Shown here one piece after another: positions 647 through 63,362 of a stretch of 64,000 nucleotides of DNA. Each line of letters begins with the position of its first letter. Within the stretch, counting starts at the first letter, position 1. Under the pieces are notes generated by a model. It had not been told where the DNA came from, made no database searches, and saw nothing but the letters and a program-made list of their open reading frames with translations. Location: IMG/VR virus record IMGVR_UViG_3300028887_000066, positions 64,001-128,000 of that record. The stretch is one strand, 5' to 3'. This stretch comes from a virus. Lineage: Duplodnaviria > Heunggongvirae > Uroviricota > Caudoviricetes. The translations under genes were made by a program, and so were the position numbers.

Positions 647-1876
647 ATGGACAATAATAGTAAGATTACAGCCGCAAAGATTGTATCCATGATGGAAAGG
701 ATGGATACGCATCAAACATATAATGCGGCGATGCTTAATGAGTCACAAATCATCCTTGAATCCACAAGGGTCACTGCTGACAGTTTCTTGGAATTCCTTA
801 CCAAGAATATGATACATAAAGGGCCGTTTGTACAACTTGGATACCTTCAGATTTATCCTACAGATACTGCCTATCCTACCGACGACTATTACAAGGCAAT
901 GTCGGATACAAGAAGTGAATTCACGGATAACTCACGAAATCTCGGAAGGTTTGATCAATATATGGACAAAGTTTCCAATAGCGAATGGAATATGCCTACA
1001 GGACGTAAAAAGCCAAATAGTGACATCAAGGCAATGAAGAATAAGCTTTATCCTTATGTACTGAAGCTCACCAACTACACACTCCATTGGCAGACATACA
1101 ATGACTACGCGAAAAAATCAAGTGACGCATACAATGAGCTTGATGCCATCAAGGGACAAATGAGCGACGATACAAGGTCTAAACTGTTTGGTGCGCCACG
1201 GGCAAAGTCAAATTCGGGATATTATCCCATCGGAGCCGCAGGAAACTATGACATTCTCACATTTGGTGATAAAGATGATAATGGTAATTATACGGCTAAA
1301 AGTCAGGAATACTTTACAGACCCAGACAATCCCGATTCAAAGGTACTGTATGACCGCACGGCAATTAGGAATTTCCTTTCTGACATCAAGCCGCAACGTC
1401 CTGTGTATTTTGGGGTCGATGAAAACGGAAATATTGACCCAATTCCAAAGTCATTAGGCAAACTTCTGTATAACCCATCCATCAGTCACGATTCAAAATT
1501 GGCACAAATAAGTGACCCGAATGAAATTGCCCTCGCAAAAAAATATTTTGACTTGGAAGACAAGAATGGCATGGCGAACAAAACATTCATTCTTCAGAAC
1601 GTCGCTTATATTTGTGGTGTGGCTACTGAAGCTGGCGGCAAGAAACGTTCTGTATATTGGGTAAATAAGAACCCGCTTTTCCTTCTTACACGTCAGAAGC
1701 AGATAAACAAGGTGAAAACCACATTCAAATACTTGTTTAACAATATGAATAATGATGAGTTACAGGAAATCATTAACAGATACGCAAGAAATGAGACCGA
1801 TGAACTGATGGCAATGGCCAACACGAATGCACAGGGTCAGACTATTTATGCAAATCCTGATGATTTGGCGGTGTAA
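647..1876 (+). CDS. hypothetical putative head-internal protein (leader MMERMD...MLNE..ILE)
   Basis: Long ORF; the ATG at 647 is preferred over the track start at 554; the leader resembles that of 47988..49874. Confidence 0.6.
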   Translation: MDNNSKITAAKIVSMMERMDTHQTYNAAMLNESQIILESTRVTADSFLEFLTKNMIHKGPFVQLGYLQIYPTDTAYPTDDYYKAMSDTRSEFTDNSRNLGRFDQYMDKVSNSEWNMPTGRKKPNSDIKAMKNKLYPYVLKLTNYTLHWQTYNDYAKKSSDAYNELDAIKGQMSDDTRSKLFGAPRAKSNSGYYPIGAAGNYDILTFGDKDDNGNYTAKSQEYFTDPDNPDSKVLYDRTAIRNFLSDIKPQRPVYFGVDENGNIDPIPKSLGKLLYNPSISHDSKLAQISDPNEIALAKKYFDLEDKNGMANKTFILQNVAYICGVATEAGGKKRSVYWVNKNPLFLLTRQKQINKVKTTFKYLFNNMNNDELQEIINRYARNETDELMAMANTNAQGQTIYANPDDLAV

Positions 1877-1895
1877 CTTATAGATATATAACAGT

Positions 1896-1929
1896 AAAAC
1901 GGTAGCATTTATTGATGTTACCGTTTTTT
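1896..1929 (+). terminator. intrinsic terminator
   Basis: aaaacggtagcat-loop-atgttaccgtttt stem followed by a T run. Confidence 0.7.
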
Positions 1930-1957
1930 ATTTGTATTTTTATAAAAACTTTATTTA

Positions 1958-4179: not shown

Positions 4180-4186
4180 ATTTCAC

Positions 4187-10757: not shown

Positions 10758-11399
10758 ATGCGAAAAGTAATATTTACTGAAAGCCAATTGAAGAAAATAT
10801 TAGGTGAAAATTTCGATACATACCTCCCAAAAAAAGATTATGCCGAAGAAAATCCGAACAATGCATATGGCACGCAAGTATCTCTTACAGGTAAGGATTC
10901 AAAGGGAGATCCGATAGATACCGTTGCAACAGACAGGATTGCAAAGTCTAGGACACCATCTATCGGACGTTTCAGGAGAATATCAGAAAATGATGAACTG
11001 AATGAGGAAAATCAGGAATTGGTTAATCATGAGTATAATCTTGGAATGAAAATGAACGGTCAAATAGATACTATGGCCGCACAGAACCCCAATGATAAGC
11101 TGCTTCAAAATATGAGCAATGACAAAAATATGAAGCACGGTACGGCAAAGAAGCGCAAACACGACCTTGAGGTAATGAAGGATGAAGACCCTGTACGTTT
11201 TCAGTCAATAAATGGCAATAACATACTTAGTGGTATTAACAGAAAGTTAAAAAACGATATGGATGCATCAAAAAGCCACAAGGAATTCAAAAAAAATGTA
11301 TTGGGATATAGCAATGCATTCCAAAAAGAAGGTGGCCACAAAAATGCATCGGGAACGGCACATACGAATAATAACATTACCGTAACATATGAAAACTGA
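10758..11399 (+). CDS. putative head-internal protein (leader MRKVIFTESQLKKILGE)
   Basis: ORF with the shared leader and ISE/LNE sites. Confidence 0.65.
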   Translation: MRKVIFTESQLKKILGENFDTYLPKKDYAEENPNNAYGTQVSLTGKDSKGDPIDTVATDRIAKSRTPSIGRFRRISENDELNEENQELVNHEYNLGMKMNGQIDTMAAQNPNDKLLQNMSNDKNMKHGTAKKRKHDLEVMKDEDPVRFQSINGNNILSGINRKLKNDMDASKSHKEFKKNVLGYSNAFQKEGGHKNASGTAHTNNNITVTYEN

Positions 11400-28495: not shown

Positions 28496-28661
28496 AGCTG
28501 CGCGACGCACCCGACTACACGGCGAGGAACGCCCTGACATGGAGGCTACCGTACTTATTGTCGCCGTAGACACTACCATAGTACGTGTAAACGTACCTCG
28601 CACGCGCCGCTGAATACTCGGAGCTACTCCAATAGAAGTTGTACGTATACAACGCAAAGGC
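28496..28661 (-). repeat. DGR variable repeat (VR) at the 3' end of the target gene
   Basis: 166-bp copy of TR with A-to-N substitutions; G/C-rich TCGGGTGCGTCGCGCAGC after the stop codon. Confidence 0.97.
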
Positions 28662-42402: not shown

Positions 42403-42471
42403 GAAAGCCACTTATTTACTATAAATACTTATTGTTAGTAAAAAAATAACCGCATATACGGCATTATCAAC

Positions 42472-43771: not shown

Positions 43772-44587
43772 ATGATCAAGAACAATAAGGTTAAAAGCAT
43801 AAATGAAGACCAACTTAGAGAAATGGTTAAAAAAGCAATTACCGAACAAATACTGACAGAAGCGCAAACCCTCATTGACAACTTCAATGAATGGGCAAAA
43901 CTTCTTGACTGCACAGACCCTGATCAGTTCTATTTTGTACAGATAATTAAAAGGTACAAGGACAATAAGGGTATGAGTAAGGCAGGTAATTATCATGCAG
44001 GCGGCGAATATGGCGAATATTCAAACGGCACTGCATTCAAGGTAAGAAATGCACAAGAGTTGTTGGCATTAAAGCCTAAAATCGTACAATATTGCGACGC
44101 GAATAATGCCCGTGCATACATCACATCCAATCCACGTTCTGATAAAGCGATAAACGCATTCATACCCACATATCAAAGACGTTCAGGAAACAATGTAAAC
44201 GATCCGCGTTACATTCACGCAGCAGAGATTCTTGCAGGACAGCCAAAACATGACCCTGTTAATTTTCCTGAAAGAAAAAGATTCATGCTTGATGTCGATA
44301 CAACTGATAAGCGTGTGTGGAAAGTCACTAAGGCTATCATTGCAAGCTACGGAATACCCATTGTAAAAGAATTCGGCACACCAAGCGGAGGCTTGCATAT
44401 AATGCTTCCAGATGCCTATGCAAAGGAAATTCCTGAGTTAATCAAAGACTTATATGTATTTGATGCCAAACAAGACAGAAATGGAAACAGAATATTCTTC
44501 CCTGATGAAGGATTCAGACAGACAGTACACGCGAATTTTGATGGAAAATTCATTCTCTATTCAAATGTACAAACGGCAGGGTATTAG
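43772..44587 (+). CDS. AEP/Prim-Pol-like protein with head leader
   Basis: FMLDVD (hhhDhD) and TPSGGLH motifs; leader SINEDQLREMVKKAITEQILTE. Confidence 0.55.
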   Translation: MIKNNKVKSINEDQLREMVKKAITEQILTEAQTLIDNFNEWAKLLDCTDPDQFYFVQIIKRYKDNKGMSKAGNYHAGGEYGEYSNGTAFKVRNAQELLALKPKIVQYCDANNARAYITSNPRSDKAINAFIPTYQRRSGNNVNDPRYIHAAEILAGQPKHDPVNFPERKRFMLDVDTTDKRVWKVTKAIIASYGIPIVKEFGTPSGGLHIMLPDAYAKEIPELIKDLYVFDAKQDRNGNRIFFPDEGFRQTVHANFDGKFILYSNVQTAGY

Positions 44588-44692: not shown

Positions 44693-45589
44693 TTATCTCT
44701 TAGGATTTACTTTAATGTAAAAACACGGAGGCTCGGACGTATCAACCTGAAGGACACCGACATTATAGTTATCCCTAAGGAAAAAGAACATTTCCTTCCA
44801 CCCCATTGGTATTTGTTTTTTGCCATTTGCATTGACTGAGAAGCTATATCCACCCGCTTTCTTAATTGGCTTACCCACAATTGGCGTATATACGGCCACA
44901 CCGTCAAATGCATACAAGCCAAGCTCCCTGCATTTTTCTTTTATTGCCATATATTGACCATAGTCAGGTTCTTTCTCGAAGAATGGCTGTAATTTCTTAT
45001 CCAAGAGAACGATATTTGATTCACCACTTATCTCAATCGGGAAATCCCCATCACTCCAATTGTTATAGTAATTGAATGCATCACAGGTAAAATCGGGTTG
45101 CGCAAAATATTTCGCATATTTGTCATTTTTTGCAGCGATGTTTCTCCTCATTGCCTTTTCACCGTCACTGAGGTTATCCAACTTACGCCTTTCCCTTTCA
45201 TCTGCTTGCTGTTGTAATATAGGTTTGTTTTCATCTGCAAGAACTCTTGCGTATTTATTCTCGCCTCTATATTGTATATTCTTCAACCATTGTTGTACCA
45301 ATTGGAATGCATCATTGTCACTAAAAGTCTCAGGTGAAAGAAAATCCTTGATACTGAGCTGTTTAGCATCTATCGCATCCGCGACATCAGGAAGTTCATT
45401 AATAGCACCATCATCGGCAAACAATGTCATTCCGTGAGCATTCAGCCTTTTCTCTGCGGGTATCACATACTCACGTATTTTATCCCCAAATGTTCTAGTT
45501 TTCGCGGTTTTATGAAACCCCTCATTCATAAGCATCTTTTTCAACAGGGAATCAAACTGTCCCTCATTAAGATATATATTCTTTCCCAT
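44693..45589 (-). CDS. putative head-internal protein (leader IYLNEGQFDSLLKKMLMNE)
   Basis: Shared leader motif. Confidence 0.65.
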   Translation of the reverse strand: MGKNIYLNEGQFDSLLKKMLMNEGFHKTAKTRTFGDKIREYVIPAEKRLNAHGMTLFADDGAINELPDVADAIDAKQLSIKDFLSPETFSDNDAFQLVQQWLKNIQYRGENKYARVLADENKPILQQQADERERRKLDNLSDGEKAMRRNIAAKNDKYAKYFAQPDFTCDAFNYYNNWSDGDFPIEISGESNIVLLDKKLQPFFEKEPDYGQYMAIKEKCRELGLYAFDGVAVYTPIVGKPIKKAGGYSFSVNANGKKQIPMGWKEMFFFLRDNYNVGVLQVDTSEPPCFYIKVNPKR

Positions 45590-47987: not shown

Positions 47988-49874
47988 TTATTTCATCAAT
48001 TCATCAAGCAACGACTCAATGCTCTCAGTAAGTTGTACAGAACCGCTATCAGTATCGGATACTGCCTGTGTTTGAGGTGTAGCACTTACATCTTCAAATT
48101 TAGCATATTTATCCATCAGATACTTAATCATGAAATTGATGATCATTGTGACAGACTGCAACGTAACCTGACAAGCATTGTCCCAATCACTGAGCAATTG
48201 TTTCGTGTCGCTTGTACGTCTTCCGAAGAGCGTAAGCACTTCTTTTGCGCCAGTAGTTTTACATCCTACGGCAAATGCTGAAATTATTTTCAAAGGCTCG
48301 ATAAGGCTTTGATTTGAATACCTCATCTTCTTCAATATATAATCACAGACATTTACAATATTGCTTGCATAGTCTACCAATACATTGCTTGAATTTCTCA
48401 CATCTATGAGATTTATAGAGTCAGAGAAATTGTTTTTCTCTGCATATTTTAAGAGTGCATCGTTATATACTTTCGCCTTACCTTCATCGGATTGTATTTC
48501 CTGAAGCAATGCTGTCTGTTCTGCTGTCAATGAAGCCTGCTGCGCCTGTAATGCGGCATTTTTAGCTGCTTCGGCGTGAGGATTCAACTCTCCTGTAAGA
48601 TTGTTTGCAAGCCCAGGAATATCCTTGTGATAATCCACATTTGGATCCATCTTATCTGGGTTCAAACCATATTTATCATACTCTGATGCAGGAATTCTTT
48701 CAGTATCACTTATATCATAAAGCCAAGCAGGTTGGAAGCCTTTCAAATCCTGTCCGAATTCATCATAGTGTCCTTTTGAGCCTAAATTCACTTTAGTTCC
48801 ACGATCATTCATTCTTGGAGCCATTGTGTACCACTTGTATTTGGCATTAGGCAGCACCCTTCTTCCGAACTTAGTCACCCATTTATTAGGCGCATACAAA
48901 TTCGTCGGATAATCGGGATCACCTGGGTTAATTCCGTAATCACTTGCCTGTCTTTGAATCATTCTCTGATTCCTTCCTGAAAGTACATTACCGAATATCA
49001 CGGCTTGAAGATTAATTGGGCTAAATACACTGGCTATTGCATCCCAATTTCCGTTTTTGATAGCTTCAGCGACTTCTTTCTTAATTTCTTCCGTAGATTC
49101 TTCGCTATAGTTACTATCGGTTTTTTCAGGAGCAACTAAATATTTGTCAATAAGGTAATTCACATCCATCAAGTTGGCGATATGTCCTTGCTCGTAATTC
49201 TGATTTCCTGATATGCTCTTTATTGCTGGGATAACCACTTTATTGAACCAATTTACAATATCGTCAGGAGCATTACCATTTGGATTTGCCTGTTGTGGTG
49301 CGGCCACTTGTGGAGCGGCTTGAGTTTGAGGGGCTGTTGCCTGTGGAGTAGGTTGTGCTGCATTAGCTCCTGCCTGAAGACGGCCAAGCAAACCTTCTGT
49401 AAGATTACCGCCCTTGTTTCCACCCGCTTGAAGCCTACCTAACAGACCTAACCCCTTCTTAGGCTGTGCCTGAGGTGCTGATACTTGCGGATCGGAAGCT
49501 TGTGGGTCTGCCTGACCATTGTCAGCAGCGTTTTTCTTTCCTCTGGCATTTTTCTTGAATGGCAATGATTTATTGAAAATAACACCATTCATACCCTTAT
49601 AGTTTAACTGTGAACAGTCAAACATCCCTTCTAACTTTTTAACATCATTAGGGAAAAGCGGGCCGATAAATACTTTCAGCATACGTGTTTTGTTGCTGTT
49701 ATCTTCGTCAATTGTCATGAGTACGTTAGGCTCAAGTTTTCCGCTATTACTTGCAATAGCCTCCTCAAGACAATTTTCCGTAATATACTCTGCTTGAGAA
49801 CTTGTCATATGTCTTCCCATTCTTTCCATCAGTGAACGCATACTTGCAAGTTCCTCATTAAATTCCTTTATCAT
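47988..49874 (-). CDS. ArdC-N-like ssDNA-binding protein with head leader and PQ-rich linker
   Basis: LS.RNQ.MI..Q...T......W..KFGRRV.......AP...F....LYDISDTE. Confidence 0.6.
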   Translation of the reverse strand: MIKEFNEELASMRSLMERMGRHMTSSQAEYITENCLEEAIASNSGKLEPNVLMTIDEDNSNKTRMLKVFIGPLFPNDVKKLEGMFDCSQLNYKGMNGVIFNKSLPFKKNARGKKNAADNGQADPQASDPQVSAPQAQPKKGLGLLGRLQAGGNKGGNLTEGLLGRLQAGANAAQPTPQATAPQTQAAPQVAAPQQANPNGNAPDDIVNWFNKVVIPAIKSISGNQNYEQGHIANLMDVNYLIDKYLVAPEKTDSNYSEESTEEIKKEVAEAIKNGNWDAIASVFSPINLQAVIFGNVLSGRNQRMIQRQASDYGINPGDPDYPTNLYAPNKWVTKFGRRVLPNAKYKWYTMAPRMNDRGTKVNLGSKGHYDEFGQDLKGFQPAWLYDISDTERIPASEYDKYGLNPDKMDPNVDYHKDIPGLANNLTGELNPHAEAAKNAALQAQQASLTAEQTALLQEIQSDEGKAKVYNDALLKYAEKNNFSDSINLIDVRNSSNVLVDYASNIVNVCDYILKKMRYSNQSLIEPLKIISAFAVGCKTTGAKEVLTLFGRRTSDTKQLLSDWDNACQVTLQSVTMIINFMIKYLMDKYAKFEDVSATPQTQAVSDTDSGSVQLTESIESLLDELMK

Positions 49875-51420: not shown

Positions 51421-53283
51421 TTAGCGAAGCTCGTTGATGTTCCAAGTCTGAAGACCTGCCACCTTGATGGCTCCATAATATCTGTTGTTAACCATCTTCT
51501 TAGCATAACGAGTGATGATACCACGAACAGGTGCAAAGTTAGCACTGTTATAGATAACAGGAGTCAACTGCATTGGAACATAAGGTGCATAGATGTAACC
51601 TGTGTCAAGGAGACTGTCACCCTTATGACCTACAAGTGCGCTTTCAGCAGGTGAATATGGGTCAACATATACCTGATAACGTCCCTGAAGTGAACCAACC
51701 TTCTCAATACCCATTGAGTAAGTAGTAGCCTCAGCGTTAGCGTCAGTTACGTGGAAATACTCAAGGTCATTAAGCATTGCGTTAATCTCGGTAGAAACAA
51801 CTACGAAGTTTGCGCCACCACGAAGTGTTGCCTTGTGGATTTGAGCGGAAATCTGATTAACCTTAGTCATAAAGGTCTGATTCCAGTCCTTCTGAGTGTA
51901 GTTAGTGCTGAAACCACTCTGCCTACGCCATCCGTTGTAGTCCCAATTGAGCTGCCAAGGAGAACCCTTACGGAGGTCACGGAGAATCTCACGGTCAACC
52001 TCTGCTGCAATCTGCTCAGAAAGAATAGCTGTCAACTCAGCCTCTGCGTCGATGTTGTGGAATGCAGCAACGTCTTGCGCCATTTCAGGACTCCAAGTTG
52101 CACGAAGTTTGCGCTCCTCAACAGAAACGGTAACATCAGAAAGCTCGAAGCTAACCTCACCGATTTCAGTCTCAAGCTCAAGGCTGTCATACTGTGCCCA
52201 AGCCACCTGGAACTTATCAGCAACATTTGCTACAGTAATTGCTGAAGGATTAACACCTACCCAACCGTCGATAGTTGCACCGATTGCCTTAGTTGGTTTT
52301 GCAAGGTCAAGCTCAAGATAGATCTTACCTTTTGCATCGCAAGGATTACCGTATTCAACGATACCTGCACCGTAACGCTGTGTAACAACACGGAAAGGAA
52401 CATTCTCGTACTGATCAAAAGCTGTAGTAGTAAGACCGCTCATATCAGTAGCAGGAATAGCAGCCTTTGTGATAACCTTCAAAGAAGCAAGGAATGCCTC
52501 AGTATCCATCTCATTGCCATCAGGGCCAGTGAGCTTAGAAGCACGGAAGCTTGAGAAACCACCTACTGCAACGATAACGTTACGGAGTGTGTCGTCAAGA
52601 CCGCAAGTTTTATAGGTATTTGGCTTGCTATATTCACCATTGCTAAGAATCTCAGCAGCCTCAATAGTACCTACCTTAATAGTGATCTTACCCTTAGAAT
52701 TGTCATAAAGGAAGTCATTGTAGAAGAGGTCATAAAGAGATTTCTTCATGTACTGAGTCACCTGAGGAGTATTGCCGCTTGCGTCAACATTGATTACCTC
52801 ATCAGGAAGATAGTAACGGTTAACTGTCTCGCCACTTGCGCTGTTACGCTGTGTGCGCTCGTAGCCCATAAGGCCGTAGTGTGAACCTGTGTCGCCATCA
52901 GTGATCTGACCGTCATTCTGAACCTCCCATTTACGCTCTGATGTAACAGGCTTGATGAAGAACAGTTTACCGATAGGCATATTCATAGCCTGAACAGAAA
53001 CGATGTCGTTTGCAAGCAGGCGAGAGAACACACGGCGAACCAATGGGAACACCACTGTCTCGAATGAACCGCTGTTAGAAGCGTCAGTAGCCTCGTTAAG
53101 AGTCTTCAAAGTCTGGTTAGCCTGATTCTCGAAAAGAACGGCCATATTTTCTTTAAGGTATCCCTTCAAGCCCTTTGTGAAGCCAAGGTTTTCCCAACGC
53201 TCATTGATTTGCTTACGTACTTGGGTCTGTGCATCGGTAGCAATACGACCGACTTTACCCTCTGTCAAAAAATTAGAAATCAT
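51421..53283 (-). CDS. major capsid protein (T4 gp23-like)
   Basis: VSVQAMNMPIG, RKLRATWSPEMAQD, AEAELTAILSEQIAAEVDREI, GYIYAPYVP, RGIITRY. Confidence 0.97.
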   Translation of the reverse strand: MISNFLTEGKVGRIATDAQTQVRKQINERWENLGFTKGLKGYLKENMAVLFENQANQTLKTLNEATDASNSGSFETVVFPLVRRVFSRLLANDIVSVQAMNMPIGKLFFIKPVTSERKWEVQNDGQITDGDTGSHYGLMGYERTQRNSASGETVNRYYLPDEVINVDASGNTPQVTQYMKKSLYDLFYNDFLYDNSKGKITIKVGTIEAAEILSNGEYSKPNTYKTCGLDDTLRNVIVAVGGFSSFRASKLTGPDGNEMDTEAFLASLKVITKAAIPATDMSGLTTTAFDQYENVPFRVVTQRYGAGIVEYGNPCDAKGKIYLELDLAKPTKAIGATIDGWVGVNPSAITVANVADKFQVAWAQYDSLELETEIGEVSFELSDVTVSVEERKLRATWSPEMAQDVAAFHNIDAEAELTAILSEQIAAEVDREILRDLRKGSPWQLNWDYNGWRRQSGFSTNYTQKDWNQTFMTKVNQISAQIHKATLRGGANFVVVSTEINAMLNDLEYFHVTDANAEATTYSMGIEKVGSLQGRYQVYVDPYSPAESALVGHKGDSLLDTGYIYAPYVPMQLTPVIYNSANFAPVRGIITRYAKKMVNNRYYGAIKVAGLQTWNINELR

Positions 53284-53338: not shown

Positions 53339-54787
53339 TTACTTAAACAAGTTGTCCATTCTGTCCATCAAGTCAAGTGCTGGGTTGCTCTTTCTGTTCT
53401 GATAGATAGTGGTCTCGTTAAGCATGTCGGAAGATTTTGCTGAAATCTGCTTTTCAAGAACGACTGCTGATTTCTTGTTCTCATTGAGTTCCATTTTTAT
53501 TGTCTCATAGAGAGCTTTTCCTTCCTTAATGGTCTTTACATTGTTGAAACGCTCAAGAATTGTTTTCTTCTCTTTTGCGGTTGTTGTCTCGTTTACAAGA
53601 AGCTTGATCACCTGTCCCATATTGACGTTAAGTGTAGCTGCCTCATAAACGGCTTTCTTGAGTTTATCAATGCAAGCCTCGTATTTTTTGTTTTCAGCTT
53701 GGATTTCCTTTGCCTTGTTGAAGATTTTAGCTGCTGATTCCCTAAGAGCCTTTACTGTGGCATCATTAGGATCAGATACGACGTGTTGGTTCTGTGCATC
53801 CTTATTGAGCCTGTTGGTTGACTTCTTCATAGCGTGCTTAGTGTTCAAGCCTTGTCCGTCTTCCTCAAGTGTAGCTTCTTCGCCTGTCACAGGTGCTGAT
53901 CCACACTCGTTTACATTCTCATTGACCTTTTCATTAAATGGATCATCATCACCTTTTTTACCATAAGGTCTCTTATTACCCTCAGGCGCACCGTCGTCCA
54001 TAGAATAGGTGGTTTTCTTGTCTGCTGGCTCATTCATATTAAGTCCAGGCATCACATCTTTCTGGTAGTCATTAACCATCATGTTCTTCTCTTCTTTAAG
54101 TTCTTCTTCTGCATTATCAGCATCCTCATCCTCGCCGTCAAGCTGTATGTCGATGAAATCATCACCAGCTTCGTCAGTTTCATCACCGCCAAGATCGATT
54201 GTAAGCTCTTCACCATCGTCTTCGCCGTCGGTTTCAGGTGCTGCATCCTCAGGAGTCTCTTCAGGAGTTTCCTCTGCTGCGTCGGCATCTAGTTTGATCA
54301 CGTATTCTGCGCCAGTCTCTTCATCCTTGACTTCATAATCACCATTTTCATCTTTTTTGACAAAAATCTGATCATCATCACCAAGTTTATTATAGACCTT
54401 GAGGAGCATTTCTCCATCCTCATCATCCACGCCCGTGAAATCATAATCATTGTCGCCAACCTTGTAGTCCTCCATATCCGACCATTCGTCATCGGCATCC
54501 TCGGCGGGAGTTTCATCCTCGGCCTCGGCATTCTCGCCCTCCTCATTTTCAGGAGTTTCGTCAGAATCTGCTACGTCGGTATTGACATCCTCTACTTCAC
54601 AACTATCTTCCGAGCCGTCAACGCATGGCTCAGTTTTTGGTTCCTCGTCCTCATCATCATCGTTGATGAGATTCTCAAGAGCCTCATTCATGAGTTCCTT
54701 CATTGACTTTTCGGTACTCTCCTTCAATGCCTTTGCGATTTCTTCAGCATTGCGGATAGTTTTTTCTGCCGTATTATTTTTTTTCAT
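53339..54787 (-). CDS. prohead core scaffolding protein (gp22-like)
   Basis: Very acidic, coiled-coil C-terminus, many LxE sites; lies between the protease and the capsid gene. Confidence 0.8.
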   Translation of the reverse strand: MKKNNTAEKTIRNAEEIAKALKESTEKSMKELMNEALENLINDDDEDEEPKTEPCVDGSEDSCEVEDVNTDVADSDETPENEEGENAEAEDETPAEDADDEWSDMEDYKVGDNDYDFTGVDDEDGEMLLKVYNKLGDDDQIFVKKDENGDYEVKDEETGAEYVIKLDADAAEETPEETPEDAAPETDGEDDGEELTIDLGGDETDEAGDDFIDIQLDGEDEDADNAEEELKEEKNMMVNDYQKDVMPGLNMNEPADKKTTYSMDDGAPEGNKRPYGKKGDDDPFNEKVNENVNECGSAPVTGEEATLEEDGQGLNTKHAMKKSTNRLNKDAQNQHVVSDPNDATVKALRESAAKIFNKAKEIQAENKKYEACIDKLKKAVYEAATLNVNMGQVIKLLVNETTTAKEKKTILERFNNVKTIKEGKALYETIKMELNENKKSAVVLEKQISAKSSDMLNETTIYQNRKSNPALDLMDRMDNLFK

Positions 54788-54973: not shown

Positions 54974-56218
54974 TTATCCGTTTAACCATGAGTCAAACTT
55001 GGAAAATTTGTCTTCTTTAATCAATGGCTTATCCTTATTTGATTCATCCGATTCAATATAAGGCTGTAAATCTTGCGGATTCATTTCAATAAACGCCGAA
55101 TTTGTCGATGGCTGTGACACACAATCCCAACAAACCAATTCAAGGTCATCACCAACTACAAGCTTATCCATTACTTGTGTAACAGAACCTAAAGCCCTTG
55201 ATGAAACACCTATCCTTAATCCTGAAAGTATCCAATGTGCAACTTGGTCGGCACAATTTGAAATTATTCCGTAGTTCCTAAAACCGTCACTGATTGGTAA
55301 TTCCATCTTTCCGACAAGAGTATGTCCTTCCCAATGAAGCTCTATTATATTCATTGCTATTCTTGAAAGGTCTATCGTAGATGTCTCAGGATGATTGCAA
55401 TTCTTTGTCCAATGCGCCTTATCTCCTTGCTTTACATACCACGTATGATTAGGTGTTTCAACACACAATACCCTTCCTTTATACGGCACTTTTTCTATCT
55501 TCATGTGCCTTTCATTAAGATAGACCCTTTTATCTGTCGAATATTTGTCAAGAGACATGTCCTTTTCACATGGTATAAAATAGAAATCATCTGTATCAGA
55601 ACCACCCATGCCAAAATTTCTTTCTATGTCCGTAGCCGTCTTAAAGCCATAGAAGGATGCCTTCCTATCATTTGAACTACCTCCAAGGCTATTTTTTATG
55701 ATATAAACAGGATACCCATGTTCAGGTGTGACAAAATCATCTATATAGCTTCCGTACATATGATAGAGCATACCGTCAAACAATTTGTCGGTTATAAATG
55801 TTACCTTCTGAAGTTCTACCTCATTCGTCCTTGTATTAAGTGTAATAACAGAATCACCGACCTCAATTTCACCAAGCGGTTTCCATCCCTCTTCTGTCAA
55901 ACATTCAGCATCTGGCGTATAGCATTCTCCATATGCGCTTCTCGCTTTTATTTTTTGCTGGTATTTTTCTACTTCTCTTTTTAATATAGATTCGGGATAT
56001 ATGCGCCCATTCGCATTTTCTATACCGAATTTTTGGAACACGGCTGACACAATGAATGGATTGGGAAGATTCCTTGCCCTTGACTCGCCATCTCCCAATG
56101 ATTCATTGAGCTTTTCGTTTCCCTTCACATCAAGAGACACGAAACCATCATTCTCAATAAGCAAGCCTTTTCCCTGCTCACCTTTTTTTATTTCGACTAA
56201 TGTATTTTCCTTATACAT
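54974..56218 (-). CDS. prohead protease (T4 gp21-like) with intein
   Basis: N.NGRIYP, GE|C.HP, GVSSRALGS and D.VSQPST motifs. Confidence 0.92.
   Translation of the reverse strand: MYKENTLVEIKKGEQGKGLLIENDGFVSLDVKGNEKLNESLGDGESRARNLPNPFIVSAVFQKFGIENANGRIYPESILKREVEKYQQKIKARSAYGECYTPDAECLTEEGWKPLGEIEVGDSVITLNTRTNEVELQKVTFITDKLFDGMLYHMYGSYIDDFVTPEHGYPVYIIKNSLGGSSNDRKASFYGFKTATDIERNFGMGGSDTDDFYFIPCEKDMSLDKYSTDKRVYLNERHMKIEKVPYKGRVLCVETPNHTWYVKQGDKAHWTKNCNHPETSTIDLSRIAMNIIELHWEGHTLVGKMELPISDGFRNYGIISNCADQVAHWILSGLRIGVSSRALGSVTQVMDKLVVGDDLELVCWDCVSQPSTNSAFIEMNPQDLQPYIESDESNKDKPLIKEDKFSKFDSWLNG
55400..55924 (-). mobile_element. mini-intein (175 aa, no endonuclease)
   Basis: Starts CYTPDAECLTEEGWK, block B VTPEH, ends VLCVETPNHT...WTKN followed by extein Cys. 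Confidence 0.9.
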
Positions 56219-56319: not shown

Positions 56320-56541
56320 ATGTCGAAAAACAATTGCATTAAAGTGGACGGAACAATATTGGAAGCATTATCCAATTCCAACTTCAAAGTAGAACTTGAC
56401 AATGGGGCGGTTATTATATGCTTTTTGTCGGGTAAAATGAGAATGAACTATATTAAAGTAATACCTGGGGATAGGGTTGGAGTGGAAATGAGTCCGTATG
56501 ATCTAACAAAGGGGAGGATTTCTGTCAGATATAAGGCATAA
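56320..56541 (+). CDS. infA: translation initiation factor IF-1
   Basis: [13 protein letters not shown]...[33 protein letters not shown]. Confidence 0.97.
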
Positions 56542-57202: not shown

Positions 57203-58789
57203 TTACCATAACGGATTTCTATGAGAAATTCTTACTGTCCGACTCAATGGTTTCTGATTATTTACTACAGTTGTTCCATTACGTCCCACTATTATTCTCA
57301 CTTTCCTATTTTCATTATTTAATGGGTTCTGTTTAATTTCCTTTAAGACTGTTCTTTCATTTACTATTATTTGTGGCATTATCGTCTCCGTATTGAGTCG
57401 ATTGGGTATTTTCTTATGTCCAGGATTCCATTTAAAATATTCAGACTTATGAATATTTTTATCCAAATATGAGACAATATCTGTTTGAAGCTTCCATACG
57501 GCATAGTTGAATGACAATTGGTCTCTATGGGATTTATTTTTTAATTCCTCCCACCATTTCTCCATTAATTTTATACATTCATAATCATTATGTTTCCTGA
57601 TTATGATATTCGATTGTACTAACCCATAATCAGATGGAAAACCTTCTTCCCTATACCCGTTTAACTGTTTATTAACATTTTCTTTTGTATCCTTTTTTAG
57701 TCTTATTACTGCCGACCCTTCAGCATATATGCAATTTCTTTCAGGATGCTGTGGTATAAACACACTTTTTTCGCTATCTATGTTTTCATTAAATAATTTT
57801 GAAACTGTACTTAAAATTTCAATATTTCCATCTATCCATAATGACATTTTGTATTCTGATAAATATTTGTGAGGATTTATCTTTATACAACGCTGTTTCT
57901 TAACATTCGATAAATTCATATCCGATACTTCATATGGAATTTGTCTAATTTCCCATACATTAGATTTAATATCTGTATTATCGGTAAAGCAAATATAATC
58001 CACATCAGGATCAACAACTCTTGGCTCAAGAAGGGTATCGTAACCACCAATTATACAAGTATATACAACTTTATCAGGTCTCGGATAATTCCATAAATGT
58101 TTATTTTCCTCAAGCCAAACTTCTGGATCTATTCTTTTGTAATGATGCTTGTTTCTCGCAGACTCTAACCAACTTCCAGCCCTATAATGTTCTATATAAC
58201 AGTTGTTATCTATCCTTTTCATATTATTTTGTACATCATCATAAAATGAGCCTCCAGTATCGTAAAACCTGCTTTGCGGGGTTATATTAAAACCAAGCAT
58301 TCTATTTTCGTCAAAAAAATGAATGCCATTTTCTTTACATTTAATAACATTAATATAACATATAAATGGAGTTATTCGTTTTCTTGGCCCAAATCTTTCA
58401 ATATCGGCAACAGCATAGTAGTCGTCATTACAAATTTCAGAAATATCTCTTTTTATTAAAACATCAGAATCCAATAAAATAAAATTATCCCCTATTAGAT
58501 CCATACATTTTTCTATTGAATAACAATGTTTTGCACTTCCAAAATCATTTACGGCAGCACCAATTCCTCTGTCTCTTTTAGGATAATGTGTAAGCCATTC
58601 CTCAAAATTTATTATTTGCCCCTTCGTGTTATCAAACACGGTCATATTATCATAATGCTTGACCCACGGATTAACGTCACTATTGTCGAATATGTATATA
58701 TAAGAATCAGGGGTATTACGTTTAATACTCCTTACAAGTGCATCCGTTAAATTCGGCGTATTATAATGTACTATACATATTTTTACCAT
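57203..58789 (-). CDS. two-domain glycosyltransferase (GT-A + DUF616/TOD1-like)
   Basis: N-terminal IVHYNTP...DNS...LLDSDV; C-terminal VYTCIIGGYD, CFTD, WIDGN, HP.RNCIY, RDQLSFNY. Confidence 0.8.
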   Translation of the reverse strand: MVKICIVHYNTPNLTDALVRSIKRNTPDSYIYIFDNSDVNPWVKHYDNMTVFDNTKGQIINFEEWLTHYPKRDRGIGAAVNDFGSAKHCYSIEKCMDLIGDNFILLDSDVLIKRDISEICNDDYYAVADIERFGPRKRITPFICYINVIKCKENGIHFFDENRMLGFNITPQSRFYDTGGSFYDDVQNNMKRIDNNCYIEHYRAGSWLESARNKHHYKRIDPEVWLEENKHLWNYPRPDKVVYTCIIGGYDTLLEPRVVDPDVDYICFTDNTDIKSNVWEIRQIPYEVSDMNLSNVKKQRCIKINPHKYLSEYKMSLWIDGNIEILSTVSKLFNENIDSEKSVFIPQHPERNCIYAEGSAVIRLKKDTKENVNKQLNGYREEGFPSDYGLVQSNIIIRKHNDYECIKLMEKWWEELKNKSHRDQLSFNYAVWKLQTDIVSYLDKNIHKSEYFKWNPGHKKIPNRLNTETIMPQIIVNERTVLKEIKQNPLNNENRKVRIIVGRNGTTVVNNQKPLSRTVRISHRNPLW

Positions 58790-58793: not shown

Positions 58794-59618
58794 TTACTTT
58801 TGTAAATCAAGCAAATCTCCTATCCTGATATTATCTGAAGGGTCTTTGTATTTGAATGTCATAGCTCCAGGCGTGAATGTCATCTCACCAAGGTAAACAG
58901 TTTCGTCAATCTCATAAAAATCAACTCTAACAAATTTGAATGGTTCGGAAAGCTTCTTTGAATATTCCACCATTTCATTGAAACCTGATGGTTTTTTGTA
59001 TTTGTTGTTTGGTTTTACCTTATAAAGATTCACCTCATTATCGTTCATATCATAATACATTATATCACCATGTCCGAAGCCATCATTTACCGTCCATAAT
59101 TTAGGATTCCCATTAAAGCACCAAAACTTATAATCAAACAAAGAATCACCATTCCCGTCACGCATTCTTTTTTCCGCAAATATTCTATGTGGTATATCAT
59201 GATAATGTATTTCAACACCATTTCTGAAAGCAAAATCATCTTTCATCCATTTGTCAAGATTGCGTATTGCCGCAGTTTTGTCTAATTTTGCCTTATCATT
59301 GACAATAATATTCATACCACTCCCATGATTGCATTTCATTACAAACTCATTCGGCAGCTCATCCCAATTTATTTCAGATATATCATTATACATCTTAATA
59401 ATAGGGATACAAATATCCTTTCCAAGCTTTTCTTTGCAATATTCGTGTAATAATATTTTATCTGCACACTTAACTTTCAATGGGTTTGTATCATAAAAAT
59501 TAAGCCAAGCCAATTTCTCCTGTATTGTTCTTGGGTTATCCATATTGAAAGACAAACCTATTCTTCTGAATATTGCTCTCTCTCTGTCAATATATTTAAG
59601 CGGATCAATACTATACAT
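58794..59618 (-). CDS. TupA-like ATP-grasp protein
   Basis: NP.TIQEKL.WL, ADK, FVMKCNHGSG, DYKFWCFNG, FVRVDFY, GEMTFTPG. Confidence 0.9.
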   Translation of the reverse strand: MYSIDPLKYIDRERAIFRRIGLSFNMDNPRTIQEKLAWLNFYDTNPLKVKCADKILLHEYCKEKLGKDICIPIIKMYNDISEINWDELPNEFVMKCNHGSGMNIIVNDKAKLDKTAAIRNLDKWMKDDFAFRNGVEIHYHDIPHRIFAEKRMRDGNGDSLFDYKFWCFNGNPKLWTVNDGFGHGDIMYYDMNDNEVNLYKVKPNNKYKKPSGFNEMVEYSKKLSEPFKFVRVDFYEIDETVYLGEMTFTPGAMTFKYKDPSDNIRIGDLLDLQK

Positions 59619-60768
59619 TTAATTCCTCCTCCGTAAAATAGCCGTCAGATATTAGGTCTTTCTCAGACTGTTTAACAAGAATATCTTTTTCAAAATCATT
59701 GTATTTTGAATTGTATTCGCAATCATCCAACAATTCGCCTATTGCCTGTTTGCCTATTTTCGTATTATTGGCCAACTCCTTAAAGAGGCTTATAAAGTCT
59801 TTTGCATCAATATCTATAAGCTTACCGAAGAAGTCGGGTATTATCTTAGGTTCAATGTCACGGTTAAGTGTAACCATATTCCATAGCCCTACACCGAAAC
59901 GCATATCCCAAGGCTCCTCTTCCAATATATCGGCCTTGTTCAGTACATTTTTTGCTACGTTAAAATCGTCAGGAAGCCCATTCGATGATATAAGTTCCAT
60001 TATCCCTTTTATGGACTCTATAAGCAGTATAGGAAATGTTAATGCCTTCACATCAATGTTTGACATTTTTTCCTCATTTCCAAGAACGACCTTTACAAAA
60101 CCACCCTGATGATGATTATCATCTTTTACTTCATCGTCCACATTAAAAAGAAGATACTCATTTATCTTTATCAATTTGCTATACAAATGCGGCAACTCTT
60201 CATCAATGTCAAAAAGTTCATTAATGTACATCTTCTTTGCCTTTTCAAATAAACTCATGGAAACACCGTATACCAATGAATCTATCAACCTTCTCTTTTG
60301 AACTTCGATACCTTCCCCGTCTATTTCATCAAGACTATTATATTCATAGTCTTCATTCGTATCGGGCGAAATATGAAACTCCAAACCACTATCAATGAAA
60401 TCAACTAACTCACATTTGAATATTATCTCATCTTCGGGTATATTGAAAAGCTGTACTAATGTATTGTAGCACAATTTTTCCAATTGCGGTCTGATATTCT
60501 TCTCCTTTTCCTGACAAAGCCTCATAAGCTTGTTAAAATGATTCGACACCTTTTCTAATGGTATCTGTGAAATATCATCCGTAAAATCCTTTTTGATTTC
60601 ATCAAACCTTTTTGTAAGTATTTTTTTTGAAAACTCTTTATCATCTAACGGAATATTTGACTCTTTATTCTCAAGGGCATTGAAAATTTTGGAAGGAATA
60701 CCACATTCCTTCCTATTTTCATTATGTATATATTGAATCTGTTTTTCCGTTAAAAATACGTTTTTCAT
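59611..60768 (-). CDS. putative head protein (leader MKNVFLTEKQIQYIHNE)
   Basis: Shared leader motif. Confidence 0.65.
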   Translation of the reverse strand: MKNVFLTEKQIQYIHNENRKECGIPSKIFNALENKESNIPLDDKEFSKKILTKRFDEIKKDFTDDISQIPLEKVSNHFNKLMRLCQEKEKNIRPQLEKLCYNTLVQLFNIPEDEIIFKCELVDFIDSGLEFHISPDTNEDYEYNSLDEIDGEGIEVQKRRLIDSLVYGVSMSLFEKAKKMYINELFDIDEELPHLYSKLIKINEYLLFNVDDEVKDDNHHQGGFVKVVLGNEEKMSNIDVKALTFPILLIESIKGIMELISSNGLPDDFNVAKNVLNKADILEEEPWDMRFGVGLWNMVTLNRDIEPKIIPDFFGKLIDIDAKDFISLFKELANNTKIGKQAIGELLDDCEYNSKYNDFEKDILVKQSEKDLISDGYFTEEELNV

Positions 60769-61076
60769 TTCAAATCACTCTTTTTATATTTCTTGGATTC
60801 ATTCATCAATTTTGCTAGACGAGCTTCTTTAAGTTCTTTTTTTGTATACATGCTGTACTTCGATTCATCAAGGGTGTCCTGATCAACGACTATCTGAGCC
60901 TTGTTAAGTCCTTGTGCATCGAGTTCATGATTCTGCTGCATAAGACTTGTTTGGGTAACTTTCCCGTTATTATCGGTCTTTGCGGAAACTTTTATCCCAG
61001 CACCCTGATTCAATGTCTCGAACAGTTTGCTAAACTGTGACTCTGTAATGTGTATATTACGCATAATATTTATCAT
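60765..61076 (-). CDS. small putative head protein (IHITESQFSKLFE)
   Basis: Shared leader; LDE/LKE/MNE sites. Confidence 0.65.
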   Translation of the reverse strand: MINIMRNIHITESQFSKLFETLNQGAGIKVSAKTDNNGKVTQTSLMQQNHELDAQGLNKAQIVVDQDTLDESKYSMYTKKELKEARLAKLMNESKKYKKSDLK

Positions 61077-61106: not shown

Positions 61107-61133
61107 AAAAATGGCGGGTTATATTCCCGCCAT
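61107..61133 (-). terminator. intrinsic terminator
   Basis: atggcggg...cccgccat with an A run on +. Confidence 0.7.
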
Positions 61134-61137
61134 CGTT

Positions 61138-61794
61138 TTATTTCTTAATAAAATCCTTTGCCTTAAACGGTGATTTCTTAGTTTTCTTCTGTTTCTCAAC
61201 AGATTTAATACTTTCCTCATCCCCCGTATTAGTCAATTCCTGATTCAGACTTTCCATCAAGCCATTAATTTCTTGTTTTCTAAAAACACATTCATTTAAC
61301 CCCATATTATCATCCACAGGAAGTTCTTCATCATTCATACCAACCTCATCACCAGTATTTTGTGGTGTTTCGTCCTCAGGACTTTCAGTAGTATTAATGG
61401 ATTTAATAAGGTCTTTTTTCCCATTTTCATCCATACCCTTTGCCGCAGCTTTCACTATCATCTTACCAACATATTTTGACAATTCACCATCGTCTCCATT
61501 TTCGTTATTATATTTGTTCAATGATTGTGATAACTTGCCCGTAAGTTGTTGTATGAATTTCTTTGGGTCAGTGTCTTCATCAGCTTCTACGCCCGCATCA
61601 AAACCTGTATCAAATTCACTTTCTCCTGAATTGTTTTGCATATCAGTTTCTTCTCCGCCAAAAGGGTCTTGAGGCATACCATTTCCTCCCATTTGATTCA
61701 TTTGAGAATCTGGCATTTGTTCTATTGGTGGCATTTGCGGTTGCTGAGGCTCTTGATTGTTACCTGTTTTCAGAAATGTCTTATTTTCGTTTAC
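61138..61794 (-). CDS. acidic head protein, probably expressed as a -1 frameshift extension of 61791..63362
   Basis: The frame is open 20 codons upstream of Met 61734, up to the A9G slippery site. Confidence 0.6.
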   Translation of the reverse strand, partial: VNENKTFLKTGNNQEPQQPQMPPIEQMPDSQMNQMGGNGMPQDPFGGEETDMQNNSGESEFDTGFDAGVEADEDTDPKKFIQQLTGKLSQSLNKYNNENGDDGELSKYVGKMIVKAAAKGMDENGKKDLIKSINTTESPEDETPQNTGDEVGMNDEELPVDDNMGLNECVFRKQEINGLMESLNQELTNTGDEESIKSVEKQKKTKKSPFKAKDFIKK

Positions 61795-63362
61795 TTTTTT
61801 TTTAAACCCAATGATTCTTTTAAGACATTCATCACACTATCGGTGAGCATATCCACAACCTCATCAAATGGTGCTGAACTACCAATCTTCTGACCGTATT
61901 TTTCACTGCCCTTTGCTGAATCATCATTGAAATCCCTGTCTGCCGTACCCTTCATAACTTCCTTATTGTCGGGAGTCGTCATAGGTTCTTTGCCATATTT
62001 AGGGTGCTTACCCCAAGCATCCAATTTCGTTACTTCCTCTTTAACGATTTTGTCTATGCTTTCCTGAAGCTTTGATTCCTTGATGGCTGTTTTTTTGCTA
62101 TCCTCGAATATTTTACTGCATACGTTTTCTACAATGGTGTCAATGGCCTTCTTTTGGGATTCATTCATTTTATCCCAAGTAAGAACCTCTCCGTTTCCAT
62201 GAGGCCCGTCCAATGCTTCCACGTCTTCGGCTTCAGGTTTTGTATTTTCGGAATTTTCATCCATTTTGTCACAAGTTTGTACATCAAGTGAACCATCAGG
62301 GCCTGTAAGCACTTCATTATCACCTGAAATAAGACTTTCGAACTCTTCCATAAGAGAATCTAAGTCAGAATCGTTTCCAGTACCAACAATGTCATCACCT
62401 ACTTCTGACGCAGATTCAGGCTCAACATCATCTATCTGTGCATTACCGAATTCTTCTACTGCATCAGGTTCGGGATATGTTTCCTCTTCACCCTGATCAT
62501 AGAAATTTTCTTCGGCTGGCATACCTGCACCACCTATTGCATCATCATCAGGATATTCAATATCGAAATCATCATCACCAAATGACTCATTAACCATTAC
62601 GGCTTTAGCCCCCTTTGGATTTTTATCAGCTACGCCATCACCGTCAAGATCATCATGAGTAAGTTCATAATCTTTATTCGGATCGCCGCTATCAGTAGCT
62701 TTCTTAGGAGCTTTGTCTGATGTTAACTGTTGCTCAACACCTTTGTCGGCATCAGTATAGTCACTGTTAGCCTTTTTGGGGTCTGTTTCGCTTGCAACGC
62801 TGTCCTTATCCAATGTAGCTTTTGCTTTCTCGTCAAATGGCTCATTGTTTTTCTCTGTGTCAGCGCCAGTTGATTTTCCCTTACTTTCAGCATCGCCATG
62901 ATTACCAATATTGTCCTTGATTCCCATACCACCTGAATTCTCCATAATCTGATGGAGACGGTCAAGTTCCTTTCTTGCGTCCTCTGTCAATGTAGCATAT
63001 GTCTTCTGACTTCTGTCGAAATCAACAGTTGATACATCCTTGTGAACACCATAAGCCTCATTAAGAGCCATCATCTTGAGTTCAAGGTGTTTTGTGGCCT
63101 CATTGTAGCTTTTGTATTCTGTTTCCTTACGGTTATTAAAACCGTTGATATAGTCATATGATTCAGAGATATTCTCTTTACCTTTCTCGGTTGTCTTGAT
63201 ATAGTATTTTGTACCTTCCTTGAGAATACCGTAAATCTTTCCATCAGCACCTTCAGTGTGATATTCCAAGTGTCCGCTATTACTGTTTTTACCTTCATTA
63301 ACAGGCATACGATAACCCATCAGATACTCCATACGAGACAGTTGTTCATCAAACTTTCCCAT
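61791..63362 (-). CDS. acidic scaffold-like head core protein
   Basis: D/E-rich; many V/L/M-x-E sites; late-type motif upstream. Confidence 0.7.
   Translation of the reverse strand: MGKFDEQLSRMEYLMGYRMPVNEGKNSNSGHLEYHTEGADGKIYGILKEGTKYYIKTTEKGKENISESYDYINGFNNRKETEYKSYNEATKHLELKMMALNEAYGVHKDVSTVDFDRSQKTYATLTEDARKELDRLHQIMENSGGMGIKDNIGNHGDAESKGKSTGADTEKNNEPFDEKAKATLDKDSVASETDPKKANSDYTDADKGVEQQLTSDKAPKKATDSGDPNKDYELTHDDLDGDGVADKNPKGAKAVMVNESFGDDDFDIEYPDDDAIGGAGMPAEENFYDQGEEETYPEPDAVEEFGNAQIDDVEPESASEVGDDIVGTGNDSDLDSLMEEFESLISGDNEVLTGPDGSLDVQTCDKMDENSENTKPEAEDVEALDGPHGNGEVLTWDKMNESQKKAIDTIVENVCSKIFEDSKKTAIKESKLQESIDKIVKEEVTKLDAWGKHPKYGKEPMTTPDNKEVMKGTADRDFNDDSAKGSEKYGQKIGSSAPFDEVVDMLTDSVMNVLKESLGLKKK

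Follow-up and report, generated by a model that had tools for sequence, protein, structure and literature searches.

A shared N-terminal leader on unrelated proteins of a T4-like jumbo phage as a candidate capsid-targeting propeptide

Can one short leader peptide address many unrelated phage proteins to the head? This question is raised by the virus record IMGVR_UViG_3300028887_000066 (356,121 bp; 36.8% G+C), of which bases 64001-128000 were taken as the starting point; this stretch of 64,000 nucleotides is called the window and is numbered from its own first base. A preliminary description of the window had proposed that about ten unrelated open reading frames (ORFs) share a leader ending in (L/I/V/M)-x-E, and that this leader is a portable capsid-targeting tag of cargo proteins that are matured in the head. 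Judged from its T4-type head genes, which belong to the gp23, gp20, and S77 protease families, the source of the window is a T4-like jumbo phage. The gp21 protease of T4 cleaves after L/I-x-E (PMC9026906), and the 10-residue capsid-targeting sequence (CTS) of T4 has its targeting determinants at positions 4 and 7 and its processing determinants at positions 8 and 10 (PMC9026906). Sequence comparison indicates that the same short N-terminal helix is present on at least 15 unrelated proteins of the phage studied here and ends in a head-protease cut motif. This segment is probably the capsid-targeting propeptide of this phage lineage and the functional counterpart of the T4 CTS.

A common leader at the N termini of unrelated proteins

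The consensus of the leader in this genome is K-x-I-x-[IL]-[TN]-E-x-Q-[FLI]-x-x-[LI]...phi-phi-x-E, with phi denoting a hydrophobic residue. The regular expression [ILVMFY][TNS]E.Q[ILVMFY] begins within the first 30 residues in 8 of the 471 predicted proteins, at an expectation of 0.49, and the maximum in 500 shuffles was 4. A leader profile, which was iterated over this genome and related loci and applied to the N-terminal 45 residues of each of the 471 proteins, retrieved 11 proteins at E < 0.06 (7 of them at E <= 1.2e-4), compared to E = 0.35 for the best match in the reversed-sequence control. The enrichment at N termini, which the preliminary description had suggested as a check, was thus confirmed. 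On residues 46-90 the profile gave a single match, g250780, a protein with a mis-called start whose true start is the Met just before the motif. The leader codons vary between the copies (ACT/ACA/ACG, GAA/GAG, CAA/CAG); because the same residues are encoded by differing codons, the leader is conserved as a protein segment and not as a DNA element.

The end of the leader is similarly nonrandom. A phi-phi-x-E motif with its Glu 8-17 residues past the T/N-E anchor was found in 85% of 81 leaders, but only in 14% of 2350 position-matched control N termini. The preferred spacings of this Glu from the anchor were +9, +13, and +17, consistent with positions on a single helix face. The endings in this genome include I-L-G-E, L-M-N-E, I-L-T-E, and K-L-F-E, and those in relatives I-L-N-E, V-L-K-E, and V-I-N-E. 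The leader itself was covered by no Pfam family in the family searches with the leader proteins, and a literature search for the core string L-T-E-S-D-L found no paper.

The leaders in the window are listed below; ORFs are named by the position of their start codon.

10758-10808, + strand: canonical leader, residues 1-17, ending I-L-G-E; 213-amino-acid ORF 10758-11399; profile E = 1e-5
43772-43861, + strand: leader, residues 1-30, ending I-L-T-E|A; 271-amino-acid ORF 43772-44587; profile E = 1.7e-5
45521-45589, - strand: canonical leader, residues 1-23, ending L-M-N-E|G; 298-amino-acid ORFan 44693-45589; profile E = 1.2e-4
60718-60768, - strand: canonical leader, residues 1-17, ending I-H-N-E; 385-amino-acid ORF 59611-60768; profile E = 6.6e-6
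61017-61076, - strand: canonical leader, residues 1-20, ending K-L-F-E|T; 103-amino-acid ORF 60765-61076; profile E = 4e-5; TATTTAT 18 nucleotides (nt) upstream
47910-47960, - strand: short leader K-I-N-E|A-I-S-E|I; 788-amino-acid ORF 45594-47960; supported by orthologues
647-760, + strand: second-class leader S-M-M-E-R-M ... M-L-N-E ... I-I-L-E|S, residues 1-38; 409-amino-acid ORF 647-1876
49761-49874, - strand: second-class leader S-L-M-E-R-M ... C-L-E-E|A, residues 1-38; 628-amino-acid ORF 47988-49874
63294-63362, - strand: looser second-class leader L-S-R-M-E-Y-L-M-G-Y ... V-N-E|G, residues 1-23; 523-amino-acid acidic ORF 61791-63362

The shared leader that had been proposed is confirmed, and with firmer support than the preliminary description gave it, but its examples are not all of one type. 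The canonical form is present in ORFs 10758, 43772, 45589, 60768, and 61076. ORFs 647, 49874, and 63362 carry another motif, ORF 47960 has only a short phi-x-E leader, and for ORF 11846, which had also been named as a leader protein, no support was obtained.

Clear members outside the window begin at genome positions 128810, 140074, 139651, 242875, 250071, 250780, 264814, and 313710, and looser ones at 243178 and 263429. The protein at genome position 148531 has a C-terminal copy of the leader, and the protein at 140493 an internal one. In the latter (L181; G000:C1:140493-141278) the leader sits C-terminal to an InPase domain and is followed by 70 further residues, and protein P0156 has it between an ART-like module and another module. 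Both look like cargo polyproteins joined at the leader/cut motif.

Conservation of the leader and the junction glutamate in related phages

The related loci that were scanned comprised 80 loci around homologous capsid genes (50-76% identity) and 80 loci obtained by searching DNA for a degenerate pattern that encodes the core L-T-E-S-D-L-H-R-I-V. This pattern for the 10-residue core detected 87 stretches in IMG/VR, compared to ~0.3 expected by chance according to our codon-probability estimate. The 160 loci contained 167 nonredundant leader hits, 153 of which (92%) were N-terminal, with a Met no more than 12 residues upstream and coding sequence downstream; 4 hits were C-terminal and 10 were internal or cut by the locus ends. 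The canonical leader of the relatives, MKK-IRLTESDLHRIVKESV-R-IL-E, reads in full M-K-K-[IV]-I-R-L-T-E-S-D-L-H-R-I-V-K-E-S-V-x-R-[IV]-L-x-E. When the leaders were removed, 80 bodies fell into 54 clusters (BLASTP, 1e-4), and every member from this genome was a singleton. As the leader-stripped bodies are unrelated to one another, the leader is portable.

Within families of orthologues, the leader and its end are conserved in different ways. In the ORF 10758 family (10 orthologues), the 17-residue leader is 88% identical, compared to 61% for the body, with M1, R2, F6, T7, E8, Q10, L15, G16, and E17 being invariant, and it is unaltered even in a homologue of 32% identity. The family of ORF 43772 has more than 203 homologues, of which 40 were aligned; in these, phi-phi-x-E|[AGS] directly precedes the conserved start of the body, x-x-x-[VI]-D-N-F-D, and the part N-terminal to it can be as short as 4 residues (M-L-N-E|A) or as long as about 45, most proteins having a helix of the I-x-I-T-E-S-Q-L type. 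Members of the 788-amino-acid protein family have N-terminal helices of varying length that end in phi-x-E before a conserved D-Y-x-x-F-D, the shortest being M-I-Q-E|L. The 385-amino-acid ORF 59611-60768 is conserved in 22 related loci and keeps the leader in near orthologues, whereas distant ones have only M-S-K-K-I-N-E|A-P-I-D-Y. In the ORF 647 family, the junction Glu is invariant. In these alignments, the junction Glu before the conserved body is kept in three orthologous families although leaders of 4 to about 45 residues occur, and this is the strongest line of evidence.

The second leader class is defined by the hexapeptide [SL]-[ML]-M-E-R-M, which ORFs 647 and 49874 share near residue 15 and which is followed by phi-x-E sites. 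Both S-L-M-E-R-M and the junction Glu are retained by 15 homologues of ORF 647, whose match to the canonical profile is borderline (E = 0.35), and the orthologue of ORF 49874 in the closest relative, L021, has S-L-M-E-R-M followed by T-L-N-E|A. Orthologues of ORF 63362 in L006 and L013 show F-x-x-x-[LI]-x-R-M-x-x-L-x-x-Y and then phi-x-E, a looser R-M-x-x-L-M/Y form. Among the 160 related loci, the SLMERM motif was present only in the closest relative, and the second class is therefore based on three families. A protein of Flavobacterium phage immuto unites an R-M-Q-K-L-A-G stretch with I-I-T-E-S-Q-F, suggesting that the two classes may be related.

In immuto (vB_FspM_immuto; L186, MW353176.1 106915-148456), which encodes gp23, gp20, and S77 proteins, two adjacent proteins, one of them annotated as PduO-type adenosyltransferase, start with F-[ND]-L-[RK]-x-F-L-[TV]-E-N-K-L-T...L-K-E, and several small ORFs between the portal and protease genes start with M-K-K-S-Q-[IL]...E. 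This phage could serve as an experimental model for the leader.

The head module and the predicted cleavage site

The head module of the window contains the following features.

40459-42411, - strand: portal protein, gp20 family (PF07230, E = 2.8e-73), at the far end of the head module with leader genes 43772 and 45589
51421-53283, - strand: major capsid protein, gp23 family (PF07068, E = 1e-72)
53092-53103, - strand: predicted maturation cut of the major capsid protein, T-L-N-E64|A65, where the T4 gp23 site F-L-T-E|A-E aligns
53339-54787, - strand: putative scaffold, in a gp22-like position between the protease and capsid genes; acidic, with N-terminal phi-phi-x-E sites
54974-56218, - strand: prohead protease, gp21/Peptidase_S77 family (PF03420, E = 5.5e-15 in two stretches; phrog_207, E = 1e-27)

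The portal and capsid genes flank leader genes 43772, 45589, 47960, and 49874, and leader genes 60768, 61076, and 63362 are located a few kb past the protease gene. The nearest cultured relatives of the capsid protein, those of Microcystis phage Mel-JY01, Flavobacterium phage immuto, and Rhodothermus RM378, are 27-37% identical, and a megablast search of the head region against cultured phages gave no match. The scaffold was assigned by position and composition alone; in 76 of 80 related loci, the gene immediately precedes that of the capsid protein, and its product had no family match in Pfam and PHROG profile searches.

The His motif (C-N-H-P-E; N-H-P) and the Ser motif (G-V-S-S-R) of the S77 protease align with T4 gp21, and from this alignment the enzyme looks catalytically intact; it is presumed to process the leaders. 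Its N-terminal L-L-I-E|N is similar to L-L-I-E|T of T4. The cut of T4 gp23, F-L-T-E|A-E (Glu65|Ala66; gp23 sequence from the T4 record), aligns with T-L-N-E64|A65 of the capsid protein, and the corresponding position has the form [LM]-[LIM]-x-E in 75 relatives, with an invariant Glu and A, S, T, or G as the next residue. Because the same phi-phi-x-E form is invariant at the T4-equivalent cut of the capsid protein, we liken the end of the leader to a protease site. A cut at L-T-E inside the leader (or at F-L-T-E, residues 5-8 of the capsid protein) was also considered and dropped; the N-terminal F-L-T-E of the capsid protein is not conserved in relatives.

In the AlphaFold model of the 271-amino-acid protein (predicted local distance difference test [pLDDT] score, 91.7), the leader forms an isolated helix (residues 12-26) followed by a globular body, and the confidence dips at residues 21-30, around the putative cut. 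Prediction of a complex between a leader (A1, residues 1-40) and the scaffold (A4) gave scores of 0.08, 0.48, and 0.06, compared to a mark of 0.32, which weighs neither for nor against binding.

The S77 domain is interrupted by an insertion of ~168-176 residues (window 55400-55903, - strand) immediately N-terminal to the catalytic-His motif, such that T4 G-E-L-N-H-P corresponds here to G-E-[insert]-C-N-H-P. The insert has hallmarks of an intein, with the start C-L-T-E-E-G...G-D-S-V, a T-P-E-H block, and the end ...N-H-T-W-Y-V...H-W-T-K-N|C; no NCBIfam or Pfam intein model matched it. The protease genes of relatives comprise ~590-610 codons and encode the same C-terminal block.

An upstream motif common to leader genes and head genes

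The sequence TATTTAT was found upstream of 10 of 14 leader genes and of 43 of 457 other genes genome-wide (Fisher p = 1e-7). The preliminary description had noted it ahead of most leader ORFs, in line with about 6 of the 10 window examples. It is located 18-41 nt, mostly 26-36 nt, before the ATG of leader genes and likewise precedes the genes for the portal protein (25 nt), the protease (32 nt), and the scaffold (50 nt). Its occurrence peaks 25-35 nt before the start codons of head genes and other large, late-looking genes, for example, 42411, 56218, 51130, 10758, and 43772. By analogy with T4 TATAAATA, TATTTAT is a candidate late-promoter element, and its presence in both groups is compatible with coexpression of leader genes and head genes.

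Proteins carrying the leader

The body of the 271-amino-acid protein (residues 36-271) matched AEP primases in VIA-align, namely, RepB' (Z 7.4, 137 residues), PriS (Z 6.7, 160 residues), S-2L PrimPol (Z 6.2, 143 residues), and LigD-pol (Z 6.1, 159 residues), the overall span being 135-175 residues; Z scores of 6-7.4 are in the range graded as middling by this tool. D174 and D176 (DxD) and S205, G207, and H209 (SxGxH) are invariant in 40 homologues. The protein had no Pfam match, and in Foldseek searches against PDB the best E value was 0.04, with none below 1e-3.

The 788-amino-acid protein is built from two ART-like modules in tandem, both of which include a small beta domain. The model of the second module (residues 400-745; pLDDT, 80.6) gave weak ART-fold matches to cholix toxin, exotoxin A, PARP1, and MbcT (Z 5.2-5.4 over 112-133 residues), a Foldseek match to PARP10 (E = 0.04), and a weak match to a cyanophage A4 pre-ejectosome protein (Z 5.3). 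The protein had no Pfam match and no Foldseek PDB match below E = 1e-3. Its homologues show the motif H...G-x-G-x-Y, but the His is replaced by R or Y in this protein, and its catalytic residues are not obviously conserved.

The 213-amino-acid body of ORF 10758 is basic and of low complexity and resembles the small internal proteins of T4 more than an enzyme. The 298-amino-acid ORFan 44693-45589 had no relative in Pfam, PHROG, PDB, or ESM Atlas, and PDB sequence searches with ORFs 10758, 45589, 647, and 49874 gave nothing usable. Searches of the window leader proteins in Pfam, PHROGs, and NCBIfam returned only one PHROG of unknown function and a WYL match below the threshold. Among the leader proteins outside the window are an InPase (PF18823, E = 1e-49) and a NUDIX hydrolase (E = 3e-9), as well as a protein with an ART-PolyVal match (E = 2e-4) below the cut-off, and relatives carry the leader on a NUDIX protein (E = 7e-20) and a nucleotidyltransferase. 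The enzyme activities that had been assigned to the cargo were thus retained only in part: the AEP-like label of ORF 43772 is partly supported by the fold matches and the invariant DxD and SxGxH residues, and the ART-like label of ORF 45594-47960 by a weak fold match (Z ~5.3), whereas the WYL label remained below the Pfam cut-off and nothing ArdC-like was found among the leader proteins of the window.

Function of the leader and alternative explanations

In the mechanism that we favor, the leader would consist of two parts. The first, an amphipathic helix opening with a short strand and N-cap (K-x-I-x-[IL]-[TN]-E-x-[QD]-[LF]-x-x-[IL]), would dock the protein into the assembling scaffold core. 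The second, one or two terminal phi-phi-x-E sites, would be cut after Glu by the gp21-type protease during head maturation, which would free the body inside the capsid, from where it would leave with the DNA at infection. The portable tag on head-matured cargo that had been proposed for the window agrees with the presence of an S77 protease with catalytic motifs, the identity of the leader end with the capsid-site motif, the conserved junction Glu, the unrelated bodies, and the position of several leader genes in the head module with a shared upstream motif; core binding, cleavage, presence in the virion, and injection are steps that we infer.

Several observations weigh against this mechanism. 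Leader genes also occur beside replication genes or remote from the head module (genome 128-149 kb, 242-265 kb, and 313 kb), and in the case of internal and C-terminal leaders, cleavage past the helix would leave it attached to the upstream body. phi-x-E is a motif of low information that is expected often in Glu/Lys-rich amphipathic helices. TATTTAT is not overrepresented in the whole genome (223 found, 224 expected), and its late-promoter role is itself taken from an analogy. The leader has no alignable homology to the T4 CTS (M-K-T-Y-Q-E-F-I-A-E), with which it has only the pattern phi-[TN]-E...phi-phi-x-E in common; from the sequences, the two may be analogous or too diverged to tell. Finally, the leader co-occurs with the S77 protease in 8 of 10 large contigs, and one more contig has a gp23 fragment, but this co-occurrence may reflect shared ancestry alone.

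The dispersed genes and the internal and C-terminal copies would also be accounted for if the helix were a docking tag for a partner other than the capsid, such as a modifying enzyme acting as on ribosomally synthesized and posttranslationally modified peptides, a chaperone, a phage compartment, or a host factor. We regard this as unlikely, as the end of the tag has the form of the capsid maturation site and the motif upstream of the head genes is also found before leader genes; dispersed CTS-bearing genes and a C-terminal propeptide (in Alt) are, moreover, known from T4 itself. With regard to a modifying enzyme, the genome has one weak, sub-threshold match to radical-SAM proteins (PF04055) at 25.6 kb, remote from any leader gene. 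The segment might instead be only a propeptide that is removed by the protease, for example, to keep enzymes inactive or unassembled until maturation, and the proteins would then reach the head or another part of the virion via other determinants. The conserved junction Glu and the match to the capsid site indeed argue for cleavage rather than targeting, and orthologues with just M-L-N-E|A or M-I-Q-E|L retain the cut site without the helix. A mere spacer, however, would not be expected to be the most conserved part of the protein, as is the helix (I-x-L-T-E-S-[QD]-L...), which is common to more than 50 unrelated bodies, and in T4 the equivalent 10 residues suffice for encapsidation (PMC9026906); a propeptide without address function is accordingly quite improbable in our judgment.

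The genome has 37% G+C, N termini rich in Lys, Ile, and Asn are common, and the (L/I/V/M)-x-E pattern is weak by itself. The similarity could for these reasons be a by-product of chance, of an AT-rich codon bias at N termini (MKK...), of a DNA element over the start codons, or of a recombination patch without protein function. This explanation is largely refuted by the shuffle, reversed-sequence, and codon controls and is very improbable: the observed count was never reached in shuffles, the reversed and internal controls were empty, the residues are kept while synonymous codons vary, the exact 10-residue core occurs 87 times in IMG/VR where ~0.3 are expected, and the leader is under stronger constraint than the body.

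A capsid-targeting propeptide thus remains the reading that we prefer. In a wider form of it, which we put forward tentatively and hold to be possible rather than probable, the leader would be a modular two-part label (docking helix and protease site) that can be used N-terminally, C-terminally, or between modules, and with which the lineage loads at least 15 proteins per virion that are injected with the DNA, including AEP primase-polymerase-like, ART-like, NUDIX, and InPase proteins and many ORFans. If this wider form is true, the injected proteins of thousands of uncultured T4-like phages could be predicted from the leader profile, and a virion-delivered AEP enzyme would represent a new way to start an infection.

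Comparison with known systems

The leader system is best filed as a longer and more widely used variant of the T4 CTS kind. In T4, the internal proteins are diverse with only the CTS conserved, and Alt is also processed C-terminally (PMC9026906); the CTS has been proposed as a general loading route for T4-like phages (PMC9026906, PMC3012670). The CTS system comprises IPI, IPII, IPIII, and the propeptides of Alt, gp24, gp22, gp67, and gp68, which are removed by gp21 (PMC9026906, PMC3012670). According to the T4 record, the propeptides read M-E-L-I-T-E-L-F-D-E|D in Alt, M-A-K-I-N-E-L-L-R-E|S in gp24, and M-K-T-Y-Q-E-F-I-A-E|A in IPII/IPIII, and the ipI-III and alt genes are dispersed. Both systems combine a T4-type head module with S77 protease and a short N-terminal peptide on unrelated, fast-evolving proteins that ends in hydrophobic-x-Glu and matches the capsid-protein site. 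One putative cargo protein is ART-like by a weak fold match, which recalls Alt in T4; genes are dispersed as well as located in the head cluster, and the C-terminal copies parallel the C-terminal propeptide of Alt. In contrast to the T4 CTS, the leader has 17-25 residues rather than 10, with the core I-x-L-T-E-S-[QD]-L-x-x-I and often two cut motifs at least one helical turn apart; it is found on no fewer than 15 proteins in a genome and, lineage-wide, on more than 50 families, compared to 4-5 in T4; it coexists with the second SLMERM class; and it is known from sequence alone.

In phages and conjugative elements, the polyvalent proteins that have been proposed to be packaged in virions contain, among other domains, InPase, ART, and PrimPol (Iyer, Burroughs, Anand, de Souza, and Aravind, 2017, PMC5512222). 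The effector domains (InPase PF18823, ART, PrimPol/AEP) overlap with those found here, as does the proposed delivery with the DNA for action at the start of infection (PMC5512222). Unlike the polyvalent proteins, the leader proteins are mostly separate, small, single-domain proteins each with its own leader and not one giant MuF-type fusion, with few fused forms carrying an internal leader (g140493, P0156).

The ejection and inner-body proteins of phiKZ, 201phi2-1, and SPN3US (PMC9026906) also represent a case of jumbo phages with many head-internal proteins that are cut after Glu by an S77-related protease, as predicted here. In those phages, however, the diverged gp21 homologue cuts at S/A/G-x-E, with a small P3 residue instead of the hydrophobic one seen here, and the capsid lineage is not of the gp23 type. 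To our knowledge, no shared portable leader has been described for phiKZ-type giant phages. Cargo-loading peptides of encapsulins likewise are short, portable peptides at either terminus that direct unrelated enzymes into an HK97-fold shell, but they bind the shell protein directly and are not removed, whereas the present system would depend on a scaffold core and a protease, and its cargo would presumably be ejected.

If the tag functions as the T4 CTS does, the proteins that a large group of uncultured jumbo phages carries into the cell could be listed from sequence alone. The listed proteins, mostly ORFans, would be factors for takeover and anti-defense in the first minute, the few internal proteins of T4 would represent the lower end of a far more extensive modular cargo system, and a longer natural targeting peptide would become available for loading foreign proteins into T4-type capsids. 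The concept is textbook knowledge for T4 and was anticipated in the literature (PMC9026906), so that the gain lies in breadth and detail and not in the principle.

Other genes in the window

A homologue of the translation initiation factor IF-1 (56320-56541, + strand; PF01176, E = 7e-23) is the divergent neighbor of the prohead protease gene and is also present in the closest relative, L021. A reverse transcriptase gene (26193-27494, - strand; RVT_1, E = 4e-22) adjoins the gene for a 2180-amino-acid protein (28515-35057, - strand), whose C terminus resembles the Lcl C-terminal domain, with a match below the Pfam cut-off; this pair fits a diversity-generating retroelement. Between the protease region and the leader genes at 59611-61076, a TOD1/MUCI70-like glycosyltransferase (57203-58789, - strand) and a TupA-like ATP-grasp enzyme (58794-59618, - strand) are encoded, which may form a pair for the modification of the virion or of DNA.

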